A DNA stretch of 64,000 nucleotides, taken from assembly GCA_947089915.1 (NCBI GenBank), contig CAMUMB010000001.1, positions 1,581-65,580 on the forward strand, given 5' to 3'. Of the stretch, positions 7,779-55,962 are shown piece after piece. How positions within the stretch are numbered: the stretch's first letter is position 1; every line of letters starts with the position of its first letter. Under the pieces are notes generated by a model. It was given only the letters and a program-made list of their open reading frames with translations. It searched no databases and was not told where the DNA came from. Source of the DNA: an uncultured Bacillales bacterium. Its GTDB lineage: Bacteria; Bacillota_I; Bacilli_A; RF39; UBA660. A program made the translations under genes and the position numbers.

Positions 7779-8057
7779 ACTATCATCTCCTATAATCTAT
7801 CCATAATTATACTATAGATTTTTAAAAATGTAAAAGTATTTTCGAAAAAAATCCCAATTTATGAGATTTTAGTTTAAAAATATTGATGATACATATCAAA
7901 TTATGTTAAAGATTTCAAATCTGTAACAATTTTAAAAATTTGTAACATCTTTTTTCCTGAAAACTAAGAAAAATATTTACTAATTGATACAGTTTTAATA
8001 TAAAGAAATAAATTCAAAAAAATATGGAATCAATTAGATGCTAGTTAATAGAAACTT

Positions 8058-8537
8058 TTATCTTTTAATTGCTCCACCATGACATTTTAAAACATAAACT
8101 CTTTCTTCATCTTTAGAAATTGTTTCAATACCTTCAAAATAATCTAAATTACCATCAACTTGAAAGGTATATTTATATCCATTATTTATGTATTCTTTTG
8201 GTCCCCTTACGGGTAAAATATCATCTTCACCAACTTGCATTAGTGCAGGTCTTAACGCACTATCTATAGCCTCCTCACTTAAGTTTTCATTTAATGTTAC
8301 ACCATAATAATTCATTGCCCAAATAGGTGTATTATCGGAAGCATAAACCACTTCTTCTCCTATAAATTTTGTTCCTCCAAAATATGTATCATGATATATC
8401 ATTTTACCATTACTATATTGATAGTCAAACGAACCTTCTCTTGAAGATAATGTCTTTTTTACATTTCCATTCGCATAAGTTTGTTTTTTAGCCTCAATTA
8501 AAAAATTATATAATCCTTTATCCATTATACTCACCAT
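8058..8537 (-). CDS. Hypothetical cytoplasmic protein (159 aa)
   Basis: Complete ORF with RBS. Occupies the position of the small ylxW/ylxX/sbp-type genes between divIB and ftsA in Bacillus. Family not recognised. Confidence 0.5.
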   Translation of the reverse strand: MVSIMDKGLYNFLIEAKKQTYANGNVKKTLSSREGSFDYQYSNGKMIYHDTYFGGTKFIGEEVVYASDNTPIWAMNYYGVTLNENLSEEAIDSALRPALMQVGEDDILPVRGPKEYINNGYKYTFQVDGNLDYFEGIETISKDEERVYVLKCHGGAIKR

Positions 8538-8763
8538 CCTATACCAATTTAGTAATGTTAGTTATTCTAATTTTGCTTTTAAACCTAAGACCTAAAACAA
8601 AGACTAAAAAGAAAACGCTTAACACACCAAAGTTCTACGTATCTCTTTTTTATTGTATGAGATTTCTCTCATCTATATACATAGTATCATAAGCCATAAT
8701 GTCTGTCAAACAAAACTTCATGAACTTAGCATAAATATTATAGATTGCTGATGCAAAATTATA

Positions 8764-8792
8764 TTTACAGATTATTGGACATATAGTATAAT
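8764..8792 (+). promoter_or_regulatory. Sigma-A-type promoter TTTACA-N17-TATAAT driving small-peptide ORF 1
   Basis: TTTACA 8764-8769, 17-nt spacer, TATAAT 8787-8792. Conserved in copy 2. Confidence 0.55.
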
Positions 8793-8868
8793 AAATTTAG
8801 GATATATGTGGTTTTGTCAGATGTCTTCCCTTTCTTTTATAACCATAAATAGAAAGGCGGTGGTGTAT

Positions 8869-8946
8869 ATGAAACAAAATGAAAAATATTTGTATTTCAT
8901 AATCGCCTTGTTATTTCTAACAATTTTTATATTACTATTGAAATAA
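8869..8946 (+). CDS. Small hydrophobic peptide (25 aa, MKQNEKYLYFIIALLFLTIFILLLK), candidate type I toxin
   Basis: SD GAAAGGCGGTG 8-10 nt upstream of ATG. Charged N-terminus, single predicted TM helix and C-terminal Lys. Paralogue in the next repeat. Confidence 0.55.
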   Translation: MKQNEKYLYFIIALLFLTIFILLLK

Positions 8947-9065
8947 CAAAAAAAGGCATCTAATCTATCTATTGATTTGTTAGATGCCAATTCCCAAGAT
9001 AAGGGATGCATTTGACTCACCTAAACCAAATGTATCCTTTTTATAATATGAAGTTGCCTTCATCT
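8947..9065 (-). ncRNA. Predicted antisense RNA 1 (about 120 nt), convergent with and overlapping the 3' UTR of peptide-1 mRNA. Candidate type I antitoxin
   Basis: Minus-strand promoter TTGACA (9100-9095)-N17-TACAAT (9077-9072). 5' hairpin AUGAAGgcaaCUUCAU. 3' terminator GGCAUCUAA-N16-UUAGAUGCC followed by U7 (complement of 8947-8988). Confidence 0.55.
9009..9042 (+). terminator. Rho-independent terminator of peptide-1 mRNA (stem CATTTG/CAAATG plus T-run)
   Basis: Hairpin 9009-9031 followed by TCCTTTTT. Lies inside the region also covered by the antisense transcript. Confidence 0.45.
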
Positions 9066-9153
9066 GTATACATTGTATCAAGTTATTTTGAAGTTGTCAA
9101 ATACCTCACAACATAAACAATAAATTTTTATAGATTGTTAATGCAAAATTATA

Positions 9154-9182
9154 TTTACAAATAGTTAGCTCAATAGTATAAT
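9154..9182 (+). promoter_or_regulatory. Sigma-A-type promoter TTTACA-N17-TATAAT driving small-peptide ORF 2
   Basis: TTTACA 9154-9159, TATAAT 9177-9182. Confidence 0.55.
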
Positions 9183-9257
9183 TGATTTAGGATATATTTG
9201 ATTATGTCAGATGTTTTCCCTTTTCTTTTGCTGTGAAAAAGAAAGGCGGTGATATTT

Positions 9258-9347
9258 ATGAAAAAGAACGAAAAATGCCTCTATTTCATAATTACGCTGT
9301 TATTTATTGTAATATTTGCGTTAATCGCTTTATTATACATAAAATAA
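9258..9347 (+). CDS. Small hydrophobic peptide (29 aa, MKKNEKCLYFIITLLFIVIFALIALLYIK), candidate type I toxin, paralogue of 8869-8946
   Basis: Same SD (GAAAGGCGGTG). KKNEK N-terminus, one TM helix and C-terminal Lys. Confidence 0.55.
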   Translation: MKKNEKCLYFIITLLFIVIFALIALLYIK

Positions 9348-9463
9348 AAGACATCTGATAATCACAACCGTGATTTGTCAGGTGCCAACCCATAATGGGA
9401 TTACATTTGACTCAGCAAAAAATCAAATGTATCCTTTTTTATTGTATGAAGTTGCCTTCATCT
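9341..9463 (-). ncRNA. Predicted antisense RNA 2 (about 120 nt), convergent with peptide-2 mRNA
   Basis: Minus-strand promoter TTGACA (9498-9493)-N17-TAGAAT (9475-9470). 3' imperfect hairpin plus U-run overlapping the stop codon of ORF 2. The sense terminator (ACATTTGA...TCAAATGT plus T6, 9403-9440) lies within the overlap. Confidence 0.5.
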
Positions 9464-9539
9464 GTATACATTCTATCAATTTATTTTGAAGTTGTCAAAT
9501 ACCTCACAACACAGACATTCACGAACAATATATTTTTTA

Positions 9540-31926: not shown

Positions 31927-32817
31927 TCATGGTAAGTTCGATTCAATCTTACTACATGCCATTTCAACAGTATTTTCAAAATATTCGAAATCAACATCAA
32001 TCCATTCCACATTCATTTGATGACGGAACCAGGTATATTGTCTTTTCGCATAATTACGGCTATGTTGTTTGATTTTGTCTAAGCAATTTTCTAATGTACG
32101 AAATCCACTAAAATAATCAAATAATTCTTTATAACCAATTGGTGCGATAATAGCCTTGGTACGTAATGGTTGTTCGTAAATTTGTCTTGCTTCTTCTAAT
32201 AGTCCGTTTTGCATCATAATATCGACTCTTTGATCAATTCTTTCATATAAAACTGATCTTTCTGTAGTAAGCCCAAGAACAATCGTTGGATAAAGTAATT
32301 GTTCCGCTTTTTCTTTTTTTTCTAAAATCTTTCCAGTTTGTTCATAATAAGAAAGAGCTCGTTCAATTCGTTTTCGGTTATTTGGATGAACCGTAGTATC
32401 TGGATTAATTTGTTTTAGTCGTTTATATAAAACAGATGTTTCTTCTGGATACGATATCACTCCATTTGTTTCTTCTTCTAATTTATAATCGTATAAAGCA
32501 GCTTTGATATAAAGGCCTGTTCCCCCTACTAAAATAGGCGTTTTATTACGGGATAAAATTTCCTCTATTTTGGTTCTACAATCTTTTTGATAATCATATA
32601 ATGTGTAGAGTTCATCCCAATCCTTAATATCAATTAAATGATGTGGAATATTTTTCTTTTCAGATTCAGTTACTTTGGCAGTCGCAATATCCATTTCTTT
32701 ATAGACTTGCGTACTATCTGCATTGATAATTTCTCCATTGTACTTTTTGGCAAGTTCAATGCTTAATTTGGTTTTACCAACCCCAGTAGGCCCCACAATG
32801 CAAATTATTTGATTCAT
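31927..32817 (-). CDS. miaA: tRNA dimethylallyltransferase MiaA
   Basis: P-loop [18 protein letters not shown]. 296 aa. Confidence 0.9.
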   Translation of the reverse strand: MNQIICIVGPTGVGKTKLSIELAKKYNGEIINADSTQVYKEMDIATAKVTESEKKNIPHHLIDIKDWDELYTLYDYQKDCRTKIEEILSRNKTPILVGGTGLYIKAALYDYKLEEETNGVISYPEETSVLYKRLKQINPDTTVHPNNRKRIERALSYYEQTGKILEKKEKAEQLLYPTIVLGLTTERSVLYERIDQRVDIMMQNGLLEEARQIYEQPLRTKAIIAPIGYKELFDYFSGFRTLENCLDKIKQHSRNYAKRQYTWFRHQMNVEWIDVDFEYFENTVEMACSKIESNLP

Positions 32818-32865
32818 ATGTCACTTCCTTTTAAATCCATCATATTTATCAATCAAATATATATA

Positions 32866-32894
32866 TTTACAATATCATAGACGTATAGTATAAT
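32866..32894 (+). promoter_or_regulatory. Sigma-A-type promoter TTTACA-N17-TATAAT, homologous to the promoters of the small-peptide modules at 8764/9154
   Basis: tatatttaca..atagtataat..tagg.tata is shared with 8758-8806. Confidence 0.45.
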
Positions 32895-32969
32895 GATTAT
32901 AGGTATACGAGATAGTTAGGTATTTTACTCAATTCTTCTGTCAAAGGCAGTAGAAAAGAGGTGATTTCT

Positions 32970-33059
32970 ATGATTTTTAAAATGATAGAAAGGTTTAATT
33001 CTTTTGGAATTAGTAGTTGCTTTTGTAGCTATTGTGTTTTACACAATCTTAGTACTTAA
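32970..33059 (+). CDS. Small ORF (29 aa, MIFKMIERFNSFGISSCFCSYCVLHNLST) at the position equivalent to the peptide ORF of the 8.6-9.5 kb modules. Possibly a degenerated toxin
   Basis: Strong SD AAGAGGTGA 6 nt upstream. Followed by hairpin terminator 33082-33118. Confidence 0.3.
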   Translation: MIFKMIERFNSFGISSCFCSYCVLHNLST

Positions 33060-33081
33060 AAATAAGGACTAATCTTAAATG

Positions 33082-33118
33082 AAAACACCGAATCAACATT
33101 GATTGCGGTGTTTTCCCA
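33082..33118. terminator. Hairpin AAAACACCGAATCAA-cat-TGATTGCGGTGTTTT, probable bidirectional terminator between the small ORF and the convergent antisense promoter
   Basis: 15-bp imperfect stem, T-rich on both sides. Confidence 0.4.
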
Positions 33119-33203
33119 TTCAATAAGAATAGAGAATACACTTAACAAGCGATATCAAGTATATCTCTTTTTTTATGATATGAAGTTTACTTCATCTATA
33201 TAC

Positions 33204-33232
33204 ATAATAACAGGTATTATTATATTTGTCAA
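33204..33232 (-). promoter_or_regulatory. Minus-strand sigma-A promoter TTGACA-N17-TATTAT, homologous to the antisense promoters at 9072-9100 and 9470-9498
   Basis: Flanked by the same ATGAAG-N4-CTTCAT hairpin (33179-33194) as the other copies. Confidence 0.45.
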
Positions 33233-33287
33233 ATTTTATATAGATTATTCATCTAAATAATAATTATTCTCTATCTACTTACAATTT

Positions 33288-34313
33288 TTAACGAATAAAC
33301 ATACTATCTCCAAATGAGAAAAAACGGTACTCATGTTTAACTGCTTCTTCATATGCATGCAGAATATGTTCTTTTCCAGCCAGGGCACTTACTAACATTA
33401 ATAATGTCGATTTTGGTAAATGAAAATTGGTAATCAGTGCATCAATTGCTTCAAATTGATATCCAGGATAGATAAAAATATCCGTCCAACCACTACACGC
33501 TTGAAAAGAATGATGCAATTTCATAACCGTTTCCAATACTCTAGTAGAAGTCGTTCCAACTGCAATAATTCTTCTTCCCTCTTTTTTAGCAAGATTTAGT
33601 GTATTAGCAGTTTCCTCATCCATTTGATAAAATTCACTATGCATTTGATGTTTGGTTACATCCTCTACTGAAACTGGACGAAAAGTGCCAAGTCCTACAT
33701 GTAAGGTAACATATAAAATTTGAATTCCTTTGTTAGCAAGATTCTCTAATAATTCATTGGTAAAATGAAGTCCAGCGGTTGGTGCTGCAGCACTTCCCTC
33801 ATTTTTGGCATATACGGTTTGATAACGATCTTTATTTTCCAATTTTTCATGAATATATGGAGGTAATGGCATTTCTCCTAATTGATCCAATATTTCATAT
33901 AAAATTCCTTCATACTGCAACTCAAAAATACGAATTCCCTCTTCTTTTATTTTGATACAAGTAGCTTTTAATAATCCATTTCCAAAAGAAATAGTAGTTC
34001 CAACTTTTACTCTTTTAGCAGGTTTTGTTAAACATTCCCATGTATCATTTTCTTTTTCTTTTAGTAGCAGTAATTCAATAGAGGCATTGGTTTCTTCCTT
34101 AATCCCATAAAGTCTTGCTGGAATAACCTTTGTATTGTTTAATACAAGTACATCTCCTTCTTGTAATTCCCCTAAAATATCATGAAACTGTTTATGTTGT
34201 ATCTCTCCTGTTTTCTTATCTAAAACAAGCATTTTTGAAGTATCTCTTTTTTCAATAGGAGTCTGGGCAATTAAATATTCTGGTAACTCATAATCGAAAT
34301 CTTCTGTTTTCAT
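33288..34313 (-). CDS. queA: S-adenosylmethionine:tRNA ribosyltransferase-isomerase QueA
   Basis: N-terminus [24 protein letters not shown]. 341 aa. Confidence 0.9.
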
Positions 34314-35046
34314 TTATCTCACCTGCTTTCTCTATTGAACACAGTGCTAATTTTAAACTATCTTGCGTATGGACTTTACTTTCTTTCCATTTCATTTCTG
34401 GATATAGCTCTTTTATTCGATTAAAAACCATATCCATATAAGGGTTTTCAAAATCAGAACAATATTGAATATACCCTGATTGATCTGGGTAGATTGTAAT
34501 ATGATAAAATCCAAGTATATTTCGGCAAGAAGCACCTACGTTAATTCCCCCTTTCATATAATTTTGATATATTTCAAATAATTCCTTATCATAAATTAAG
34601 GACTGATTTAAAATAAGTTCATCCATTTCTTCATGAAACAATCCTAGTTCTCTTGGAACATTATAAGAAACTCCATCAAAATCAACAACACAATCCTGCA
34701 AATTTTCAGGACTAATATATTGTTTTTTAAAGAAAACATCATTAACAGGTAAGTAATGATATTTTATTGATTGCGTTGATGTTTTCAAATATAATATTCC
34801 TTCCTCTACATACCATGTAGAATTCTGACGTAATAAAGGATTTACCATTTTATATCTAAGTTCAAATAACAAAAAGTCAAAATAGGGTTTAAAATGGTGA
34901 TAGTTTTTAGAAAATTCCTCAAATCTTATTCCATTATTTTCATTTTCTTCTACATAATTTTTACAAATACTTTCGGCAAACATACCCATTTCATAATAGG
35001 AAATTGTTATCCTTTTGTTCTCATCTGTAATAAATCCTGTTTCCAT
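34288..35046 (-). CDS. Hypothetical cytoplasmic protein (252 aa)
   Basis: Complete ORF overlapping the queA start by 26 nt. No family recognised. Confidence 0.4.
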
Positions 35047-54809: not shown

Positions 54810-55916
54810 CTATTCACTTAATTGTAGCCATACATTATAGATATTAGAAGTTATTTCAGTGTTACCGCTTTTATTTCTCCTTATTTCAAAATATCCAAGT
54901 CCGTCTATTGTTAATATGTTGGTAGACAATACCTTTCTATCAAGTACTTCTGTATACCCTCCAGAGGCACCGGTTTTAAACAAAACTGGCACCGCAAGTA
55001 TCTGCCGACTACTGTTATCTAGCAAATTTACCTCTTCATAAAAGAAATATTCAAAGGCTAGATTAACTATTGGTTGATCTTCTGGAACATGTGATGTTGC
55101 AGATACATCTACATAAATATATGCATAATCAGTCAAATTGATTGGATCTTTCGTATATATTCCCCGACGTTCTTCATTATCTCCTGTAATTTCTAAATAT
55201 AAATAATCTTCTTGTGCTGTCAGTTCTGCTTTATAAGTCTCAAACTCTGCTAGCATTTCCCCATCTAATATAAGATAGTCTGCTAGTTTCTTCGTATCAG
55301 AACATACTTCTGTTTTGCCATTCGTTGTACATACCTTTGCATATGCTGCTTCTGATGGATAAATACATGTATTATTTTCATTCATACCTAAAGCAGTAAT
55401 ATCATCTTCTGTTTTGCCGTAATAACATTTCGTTTCTTTTACAAATGTATTCATTTGTGATTCATAATTTAATATCACTTGAGTATCTGTAAAATTTTTG
55501 CTACTCCAATTTGGTTTGGGCAAATATACGCTAGTATCTCCCACACAATCCTCTCTATCTATTATCTTAGGACTTTCATCATAACCTTTTTCAACACAGT
55601 ACTTTCCTATTTTAGCAATTATACTCATTTGATTGTTTTCTCCTATTACGAGTATTCCACTTTCTGGTTTAGATCCTTTATAAGTTAAGATATCACCTGT
55701 TAAATCAATTGTTTGTTGATATTCTTCTCCTTCTAACATCGATTCCAATTGATAGTTCTCTGCTGCTTCTAAGATCCCATTTACCGATTCTATTGCTGCT
55801 CCTCTTCTTGACTTTTCAATCACATCCATTATCATTGGCGTTGCGATTAGTGCGATTACTGCTAGTATTACGATAACTGCTAATAATTCTACTAATGTAA
55901 ATCCTTTTTTCTTCAT
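54810..55916 (-). CDS. Type IV pilin-like protein (prepilin-type N-terminal cleavage/methylation domain, 368 aa)
   Basis: MKKKG-FTLVELLAVIVILAVIALIATP: class III signal peptide with G(-1), F(+1), E(+5), followed by a large secreted domain. GAGAGGAAGG RBS. Confidence 0.75.
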   Translation of the reverse strand: MKKKGFTLVELLAVIVILAVIALIATPMIMDVIEKSRRGAAIESVNGILEAAENYQLESMLEGEEYQQTIDLTGDILTYKGSKPESGILVIGENNQMSIIAKIGKYCVEKGYDESPKIIDREDCVGDTSVYLPKPNWSSKNFTDTQVILNYESQMNTFVKETKCYYGKTEDDITALGMNENNTCIYPSEAAYAKVCTTNGKTEVCSDTKKLADYLILDGEMLAEFETYKAELTAQEDYLYLEITGDNEERRGIYTKDPINLTDYAYIYVDVSATSHVPEDQPIVNLAFEYFFYEEVNLLDNSSRQILAVPVLFKTGASGGYTEVLDRKVLSTNILTIDGLGYFEIRRNKSGNTEITSNIYNVWLQLSE

Positions 55917-55962
55917 TCAAATCTTCCTTCCTCTCATAATAAACCATAAAAAAAGGGGTATA

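Follow-up and report, generated by a model that had tools for sequence, protein, structure and literature searches.

A predicted type I toxin-antitoxin-like module encoding a 22-residue membrane peptide between queA and miaA of an uncultured gut Bacillales bacterium

We analysed a stretch of 64,000 nucleotides (nt) from an uncultured Bacillales bacterium (GenBank assembly GCA_947089915.1, contig CAMUMB010000001.1), referred to as the window throughout, with position 1 as its first letter. Between two minus-strand genes, queA-like and miaA-like, lies a gap of 470 bp (32818-33287) that holds a plus-strand promoter, two overlapping open reading frames (ORFs), two hairpins and a convergent minus-strand promoter followed by a short hairpin of its own (Table 1). 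The source organism of the window has been seen in mouse-gut metagenomes, where the same 470-nt gap occurs with no gene calls within it. An earlier reading of the sequence (the original prediction) took the gap for a third, diverged copy of a module found as a tandem pair elsewhere in the window, consisting of a sense promoter, a small ORF and an antisense promoter. All of the parts that it named are present: the plus-strand promoter, the strong Shine-Dalgarno (SD) sequence with a 29-codon ORF, and the minus-strand promoter with its ATGAAG-N4-CTTCAT hairpin. It had also placed a T-run behind a 15-bp hairpin; both exist, but it is behind another hairpin (33131-33168), and not the 15-bp one, that the T-run (33168-33174) lies. 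As set out below, the gap probably holds an intact member of a new, undescribed chromosomal family that resembles toxin-antitoxin (TA) systems of type I, with predicted toxicity and transcription.

Table 1. Features of the module between queA and miaA, and matches of the family profile in the window
Feature	Position	Strand	Remarks
Sense promoter	32866-32894	+	-35 TTTACA 32866-32871, 17-nt spacer, -10 TATAAT 32889-32894; 11/12; predicted transcription start ~32901
5' leader, 5' strand of long-distance helix	32901-32926	+	pairs with 33132-33166
Anti-SD hairpin masking SD1	32927-32964	+	predicted folds
SD1, AAGAGGTGA	32956-32964	+	5 nt before the leader start codon (ATG1) at 32970
ATG1::SD2 hairpin, UUUCUAUGAUU/AAUGAUAGAAA (SD2 side AUAGAAA)	32965-32991	+	inverted repeat I4, 13 nt, 92% complementary; minimum free energy folds
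Leader ORF, 29 codons, MIFKMIERFNSFGISSCFCSYCVLHNLST	32970-33059	+	overlaps toxin ORF in another frame
SD2, GAAAGG	32988-32993	+	10 nt upstream of toxin start codon
Predicted toxin ORF	33004-33072	+	TTG start, 22 residues, (M)ELVVAFVAIVFYTILVLKNKD = LELVVAFVAIVFYTILVLKNKD, stop TAA
Hairpin 1, GAAAACACCG/CGGTGTTTTC, predicted antisense terminator	33081-33115	-	inverted repeat I6, 10 nt, 100% complementary; then UUUUCAUUUAAGAUU on minus strand
Hairpin 2 and T-run (33168-33174), predicted toxin mRNA terminator	33131-33174	+	both arms form 3' strand of long-distance helix
Predicted antisense (antitoxin) RNA, ~125 nt	33197-33072	-	5' hairpin, A-rich linker, middle hairpin, terminator
5'-terminal antisense hairpin, AUGAAG-UAAA-CUUCAU (plus strand ATGAAG-TTTA-CTTCAT)	33180-33195	-	6 bp, four-base loop
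Antisense promoter	33232-33204	-	-35 TTGACA 33232-33227, 17-nt spacer, -10 TATTAT 33209-33204; 11/12, extended TG; predicted transcription start ~33197
miaA-like gene	31927-32817	-	one flank of gap
queA-like gene	33288-34313	-	other flank of gap
Family profile match, copy A	8740-9105		E=2e-45
Family profile match, copy B	9126-9503		E=6e-49
Family profile match, copy C	32855-33248		E=8.3e-39
Family profile match, remnant	8605-8692		E=8.6e-20

Homology among the copies is clear. When the window was searched with blastn, the module in the gap (copy C, 32845-33240) aligned over its whole length with copy B of the tandem pair (9135-9510; 62% identity, E=1.7e-19) and with copy A (8745-9110; E=6e-17), and a fourth, partial copy appeared at 8610-8710 (E=3e-9). 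The window contains four occurrences of a 27-nt motif, TATGANNTTNNNNTCATCTNTATACAT, where chance would give 0.01. A family hidden Markov model (HMM) made solely from modules of other genomes matches exactly the four module places in the window (Table 1), and an antisense family profile (nhmmer) matches at 33197-33047 with E=8.6e-17.

The fourth place is a remnant without a toxin (8584-8712), which directly adjoins copies A and B. What survives in it is the antisense promoter, the 5' hairpin (as ATGAGA/TCTCAT) and part of the middle hairpin; it has no sense promoter or small ORF upstream.

To look beyond the window, one genome per species was searched with the 27-nt motif. This returned at least 117 matching stretches in at least 82 species-level assemblies (counted by contig accession), two of which are closed 1.5-Mb chromosomes. 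Among the matches listed, almost all hosts are metagenome-assembled genomes (MAGs) labelled uncultured Bacilli, Tenericutes or Erysipelotrichaceae, with Candidatus Coprosoma, Faecisoma or Ventrenecus, Firmicutes CAG:822 and Mycoplasma sp. CAG:611 as further labels, and the sources are animal guts: rabbit, goat, deer, chicken, human, mouse and ruminant. Several MAGs carry three to six or more copies, some of them in tandem, and the modules are dispersed at non-syntenic sites. With four copies or part-copies in the window and further ones in other genomes, the dispersed element family that had been proposed from the window alone holds up, and its distribution marks it as a genuine module family of uncultured, small-genome gut Bacilli.

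A small hydrophobic ORF with an SD sequence lies upstream of nearly every motif match. In most modules, as in copies A and B, the peptide starts with charged residues and continues into a transmembrane stretch (MNKKDFLILSLL... and MTKRE... are examples). The peptide of copy C falls into another, second class (C-type). The original prediction read its product from the 29-codon ORF, found the peptide less hydrophobic and suggested that it might be a decayed toxin; this was the wrong frame. In the window, the toxin frame is +1 relative to the 29-codon ORF, which it overlaps, and its peptide consists of a hydrophobic stretch with a charged KNKD tail. Like the toxin genes of type I TA systems, 33004-33072 would encode a small (<60 residues), hydrophobic, membrane-type peptide, and it has a ribosome-binding site (RBS) of its own.

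Comparative data bear on the choice of frame. The C-type set comprises 15 genome copies, the window's included (13 distinct with a complete ORF region; L024 is truncated), and four metagenome copies, the true ones among 120 loci in a metagenome scan with a C-type pattern that otherwise gave random matches. All C-type copies found, truncated L024 included, conserve the second-frame peptide, with a consensus of 21-22 residues: M/L-[EKQ]-L-[VI]-x-[AV]-F-x-x-I-V-[FL]-Y-T-[IV]-[IV]-[VI]-L-K-[NK]-K-D. A GAAAGG or AGGAGG SD sequence precedes the toxin start by 6-13 nt in every copy. Among the 15 genome copies the start codon is ATG in eight and TTG in seven; TTG is common to the window copy, L075, L110, L024, L196 and L224, and is a lineage trait rather than a lesion. 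For the 13 distinct sequences, codon-position entropy in the toxin frame is 1.08/0.50/1.21 at positions 1/2/3, and the ratio of nonsynonymous to synonymous changes (pN/pS) is 0.55 in the toxin frame versus 1.04 in the 29-codon frame. By these values the toxin frame is under purifying selection, and they point to a predicted 22-residue membrane peptide, not the 29-codon ORF, as the real product of the gap.

Unrelated peptide classes occupy the same RNA scaffold elsewhere (L056, L053, L037, L101, L068, L083 and others), among them MKTKTFIVKVLKLISIILLLSTLLVLALKK, MLKKEFFFQLVLILQLVII... and MEYLVILVVLLYMLMHDDNFKNHKK. The MEYLVILVVLLYMLMHDDNFKNHKK class also has an upstream overlapping ATG.

The 29-codon ORF is best described as a leader. 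In 16 of 16 fully analysed C-type modules, four of which were recruited without SD1/ATG1 as a criterion, SD1 (AGAGGTGA or GGAGGTGG) is followed 5-6 nt downstream by ATG1, and the leader reads across the toxin initiation region. The distance from ATG1 to the toxin start is 31-34 nt, or 49 nt in L047, where a second in-frame ATG stands at 34. Leader and toxin are offset by 1 mod 3 in 14 of the 16 copies. The leader peptide itself is not conserved in sequence, and its stop position wanders (14, 28, 29, 34, 41 or 52 residues); the apparent conservation of ..IER.. in the leader frame arises because ATAGAAAGG, the SD of the toxin ORF, encodes I-E-R. Since frame and length both vary, the conserved feature is translation across the site rather than the leader peptide. 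The C subtype adds a leader ORF to what is best classed as a new, non-homologous family of type I TA-like modules.

The two remaining copies, L036 and L074, have the leader in the other frame (offset 32), where it runs for 14 codons and stops ~10 nt past the toxin start. This arrangement is a classical layout for termination-reinitiation.

Three local hairpins recur in the predicted folds of the C-type modules. SD1 is paired in the local minimum free energy (MFE) structure of every C-type module, and the anti-SD stems differ between modules by compensatory changes (CUGUC/GGCAG, CAUC/GAUG, CUCCG/CGGAG, CUCCUUA/UAAGGAG). The ATG1 region pairs in turn with SD2, and the top of that stem shows compensatory A:U, U:A and G:C variants in L075, L110, L008 and L140. 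The L006 and L015 sub-lineages pair the ATG1 region with the toxin start codon region instead, so that pairing with either SD2 or the toxin start is found in all three sub-lineages. A third recurrent local hairpin is small and holds the toxin start within its loop. Gaps in a MAFFT alignment of the 5' regions of C-type modules left RNAalifold without a consensus, and per-sequence folds were used instead.

The sense promoter of copy C aligns with those of copies A and B, and an equivalent promoter scoring at least 9/12 is present in 96 of 115 family modules. The predicted toxin mRNA is ~275 nt long (~32901-33175). In the MFE fold of 32901-33177 (-74.8 kcal/mol, z=-5.6), the first ~26 nt pair with both terminator arms. 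A duplex matrix of leaders against 3' untranslated regions (UTRs), noisy and allowing large loops, pointed to such a long-distance helix (self pairs -29.6 versus non-self -23.2 kcal/mol). Among the 96 modules whose sense promoter scores well, an average of 23 bp joins the first 35 nt to the last 75 nt in the MFE structure, and 91% of modules have at least 10 pairs. By comparison, leaders swapped in from another module gave a mean of 11 bp, and shuffled leaders a mean of 4 bp, with at least 10 pairs in 6%. For 95 distinct leader-plus-tail sequences, RNAalifold returned inter-region pairs only, 20 of them, ~90% paired. Compensatory changes are frequent (for example, GC 43/AU 36; AU 46/UA 32; GC 44/AU 38; UA 31/CG 31), and many G.U pairs in the helix are valid on the plus strand only. 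The full-length toxin mRNA is therefore predicted to carry a 5'-3' long-distance interaction as in aapA/IsoA, but with the SD sequences outside the helix, so that its role may differ.

On the minus strand, a promoter scoring at least 9/12 is found in 97 of 116 modules, and in 115 of 116 the 5' hairpin is separated by precisely 8 nt from the end of a -10 hexamer. The arms of this hairpin covary (ATGAAG/CTTCAT in 62 of the 116 modules, ATGAGA/TCTCAT in 23, ATGAAA/TTTCAT in 10), and metagenome copies add the variants ATGTGA/TCACAT and ATGCAA/TTGCAT. Of 20 non-Watson-Crick arm pairs, 18 are G.U in the minus-strand RNA only, and the loop read on the minus strand is GAAA, a GNRA loop, in ~100 of the 116 modules; thus, the hairpin is an RNA feature located at the very 5' end of a minus-strand RNA. 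The antisense RNA of copy C, which would end shortly beyond the stop codon of the toxin, has a predicted fold of -40.8 kcal/mol (z=-7.0), and an alignment of 114 antisense sequences shows the same layout, ending in a terminal hairpin and U-run. Hairpin 1 also folds within the sense 3' UTR. Antisense and toxin mRNA would overlap by their 3' ends for ~100 nt (~33072-33175), wholly inside the toxin 3' UTR and without reaching the toxin coding sequence. As in type I TA systems, the predicted antisense transcript is complementary to the toxin mRNA, here at the level of sequence.

From these features we infer transcription, toxicity, leader coupling and an RNase step, which together suggest the following scheme. 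A plus-strand toxin mRNA would be made while the minus-strand antisense RNA is transcribed convergently. The anti-SD hairpin would mask SD1 and the ATG1 region would sequester SD2, keeping translation low. Given the pairing of the ATG1 region with SD2, the toxin RBS would be unmasked by a ribosome that starts on the leader or translates it; whether this mok/hok-like coupling operates is in our view evenly balanced. In the finished mRNA, a helix of the first ~26 nt with both terminator arms would close the molecule. Since the antisense RNA matches this helix's 3' strand with perfect complementarity, antisense binding and the helix are mutually exclusive from coordinates alone. Binding would give a ~100-bp duplex for cleavage by RNase III, and displacement of the helix would free the 5' end for decay, so that toxin mRNA would be kept low. 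Antisense action most likely resembles that of txpA/RatA and bsrG/SR4.

Pairing of the par type, between the first 41 nt of the antisense RNA and the initiation region, is not supported as a family trait: the mean z of the duplex energy across 94 modules was -0.44 versus shuffles. The window copy taken alone gave z of about -2.1.

The sequence-level support for a TA-like module comprises homology, distribution, coding frame, conservation of promoters and terminators, and covariation of three RNA elements. Several points weigh against this interpretation. The toxicity of the peptide is assumed by analogy, and the peptide is only 22 residues long with a TTG start. Every homologue stems from a MAG or a metagenome, and a pattern taken from the antisense hairpin served to recruit most of them. 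Transcription start sites and 3' ends were predicted solely from consensus promoters and hairpins. In the window copy, the U-tract of the antisense terminator, UUUUCAUUU, is weak, and a terminator scan of the locus reported no antisense terminator. The leader stays open across the hydrophobic stretch because its codons end in the T-rich second position of the toxin codons, and no stop codon ends in T. Openness over this stretch would then be automatic, and leader length is no evidence of function; it is the conserved SD1/ATG1 and the pairing to SD2 that argue for a leader role. Finally, when the 3' UTR was removed in prediction, the local hairpins around both SD sequences were unchanged, which leaves the long-distance helix without obvious translation control. 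The folds suggest a role for it in stability and end protection rather than in direct translational masking.

Given that toxicity rests on analogy, one could ask whether the module is instead a gene for a small membrane protein with a cis-antisense regulator, such as a stress-induced membrane peptide tuned by antisense RNA. Many small hydrophobic proteins are harmless regulators, and neither Pfam nor NCBIfam links the peptide to any known toxin family. However, the module exists in multiple copies, has undergone tandem duplication and is scattered over non-syntenic sites; unrelated hydrophobic peptides share one conserved RNA scaffold; several layers mask the SD sequence and a helix closes the ends of the mRNA; and an orphan antisense remnant exists. 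These are hallmarks of type I TA systems and would be unusual for housekeeping small proteins, and we consider a non-toxic function unlikely.

The possibility that copy C is a decayed toxin, with a weakly hydrophobic 29-residue relic and only the antitoxin RNA retained, draws on the 29-codon frame, which is indeed not hydrophobic, unlike the peptides of copies A and B, and on the precedent of the true toxin-less remnant at 8584-8712. It is hard to reconcile with the second-frame hydrophobic peptide, which recurs with a start codon and SD sequence in 14 other genome copies and four metagenome copies and is under purifying selection, or with a TTG start that other copies share. The window copy is intact: it retains both 11/12 promoters, both SD sequences and all hairpins. 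Decay is thus very improbable.

Equally slim is the chance that a programmed +1 frameshift, located at the U-run UCU-UUU-GG, fuses both frames into a single 34-residue toxin, MIFKMIERFNSF-LELVVAFVAIVFYTILVLKNKD, with a charged N-terminus like those of copies A and B. Such a fusion would account for the strong SD belonging to the upstream frame, for the read-through of the toxin start by the leader with its predominant offset, and for the T-run at the junction in the window copy. Yet the junction is not kept as a slippery site in other copies (CCAATGG, AAGATGA, CTAATGG, TTAAATG), an ATG or TTG start following an SD sequence is retained at exactly that position in every copy, and the leader of L036/L074 occupies the other frame, where it is only 14 codons long.

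Conserved synteny of the C-type modules was ruled out, as miaA or queA lies near none of the 14 C-type loci. Furthermore, queA and miaA are merely 3-10 nt apart in three other family-bearing genomes (L007, L059, L051), so that the window module represents an insertion where the site itself is not conserved, as would suit a dispersed element. Neither a target duplication nor a terminal repeat was seen. That the module is a promoter/terminator cassette that rewires its flanking genes (miaA being downstream of queA), with incidental small ORFs, is scarcely credible: it does separate two otherwise adjacent genes and supplies the only good minus-strand promoter upstream of miaA, but modules elsewhere occupy unrelated sites, a cassette would need neither a peptide frame under purifying selection nor a covarying plus-strand mRNA structure, and any influence on miaA would more probably be a by-product of insertion.

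Searches against known families returned nothing that would name the module. Rfam gave no matches at the gathering threshold over the whole window, and permissive Rfam scans of both loci gave chance-level matches only. Five peptides (the 22-residue peptide, the leader peptide, the hypothetical fusion and the peptides of copies A and B) had no Pfam or NCBIfam match even at E<=10. Copy C had no blastn match among plasmids and phages, the 27-nt motif was absent from viral contigs (0 matches), and none of ten family peptides was present, by exact look-up, in a collection of 15 billion proteins. A full-text literature search for the peptide and hairpin strings found no papers. The module belongs to none of the Fst, TxpA/BsrG, Hok or AapA families with which it was compared; its resemblance to these systems is architectural only.

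Type I TA systems with 3' overlap in Firmicutes have been described, as has hok/mok (PMC4147584). The closest in layout are txpA/RatA and bsrG/SR4, in which convergent RNAs overlap by ~75-120 nt at their 3' ends, outside the toxin initiation region, and mRNA decay depends on RNase III, whether or not the RBS is also affected structurally (PMC4147584). The module in the gap shares the convergent, 3'-overlapping RNAs outside the initiation region and a small hydrophobic predicted toxin. It differs in having no Pfam, NCBIfam or Rfam relation to these systems, a toxin of 22 rather than 38-59 residues, a covarying closing helix whose 3' strand would be the antitoxin target, a leader ORF in the C subtype, a host among uncultured gut Bacilli and a location outside any prophage.

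Other features recall more distant systems. The hok and aapA mRNAs carry 5'-3' long-distance helices (PMC6733600). In hok/mok/sok (plasmid R1 and chromosomal homologues), mok translation is needed for hok translation and the full-length hok mRNA is locked by a fold-back helix (PMC4147584; PMC6733600); the likeness lies in a leader ORF that overlaps the toxin ORF in another frame and in the 5'-3' fold-back of the full-length mRNA. In contrast, Sok pairs with the mok initiation region on the 5' side, whereas the antisense here lies in the 3' UTR; Hok has ~50 residues, belongs to Proteobacteria and shows no homology (there is no Hok Pfam hit); and coupling here is deduced from ATG1-SD2 pairing. 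The aapA/IsoA mRNA of Helicobacter pylori passes through successive SD-masking hairpins before a stable 5'-3' long-distance interaction forms in the full-length molecule (PMC6733600). It resembles the present family in being chromosomal and multi-copy, with a short toxin (~30 residues in aapA), SD-masking hairpins and a 5'-3' helix. The aapA helix, however, masks the SD and has to be undone by 3' trimming, and the overlap of IsoA is with the 5' part, whereas the helix here uses the extreme 5' leader rather than the SD and the antisense would target its 3' strand. In par (Fst/RNA I-RNA II) of Enterococcus faecalis pAD1, translation is repressed through the direct repeats DRa and DRb, by which the Fst initiation region and the 5' part of RNA II pair (PMC4147584). 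The two have in common convergent RNAs that share a terminator region, a hydrophobic toxin with a charged C-terminal tail and an SD masked by 5' structure; the new family differs in that complementarity to the initiation region is not enriched and no Fst/Ldr match exists in Pfam or NCBIfam.

A more far-reaching reading, which we advance tentatively as possible rather than probable, is that the family is a modular Gram-positive RNA chassis that independently assembled three control layers otherwise found in Proteobacteria: a covarying closing helix, in the C subtype a mok-like leader whose initiation unmasks the toxin SD, and an antitoxin that invades the 3' strand of the helix instead of the initiation region. 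Such a chassis would carry at least four unrelated membrane peptides of opposite charge polarity, which would, if this reading is true, imply toxin swapping on a fixed regulatory scaffold.

These results correct the call of the 29-codon ORF and describe a family that is invisible to annotation, yet occurs in at least 82 species-level genomes without cultured representatives. It joins the 3' overlap characteristic of Firmicutes to a closing helix like those of hok and aapA and to a leader ORF resembling mok, and thereby offers a test case for whether such control layers evolved convergently and for how a 3'-bound antitoxin would act on translation and stability. Should the peptide not be toxic, the module would be an ordinary pair of small protein and antisense RNA, of lower interest. 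In either case, the 27-nt motif and the family HMM provide a handle for finding such loci in metagenomes.

Some further observations concern the surroundings of the module and the window at large. No minus-strand promoter scoring at least 9/12 was seen between the antisense terminator and miaA, so miaA expression may require transcripts that read through from queA or that start at the antisense promoter. An inverted repeat of 13 nt (92% complementary, 32806-32818 / 32847-32859) flanks the minus-strand SD and start codon of miaA; it may serve to mask initiation of miaA, or be due to chance. Between ruvB and queA, a minus-strand ORF of 252 residues (34288-35046), with no Pfam hit on record in matching metagenome contigs, overlaps the start of queA by 26 nt. 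Weak blastn matches of the module at 2480-2624, 7785-7839 and 8085-8128 were inspected and dismissed as chance. A minus-strand match of the family HMM at 55849-55960 (E=2e-4) was a false positive, being the N-terminus of a prepilin-like protein; the ORF concerned (54810-55916, minus strand) has a prepilin-type N-terminus, MKKKGFTLVELLAVIVILAVIALIATP....

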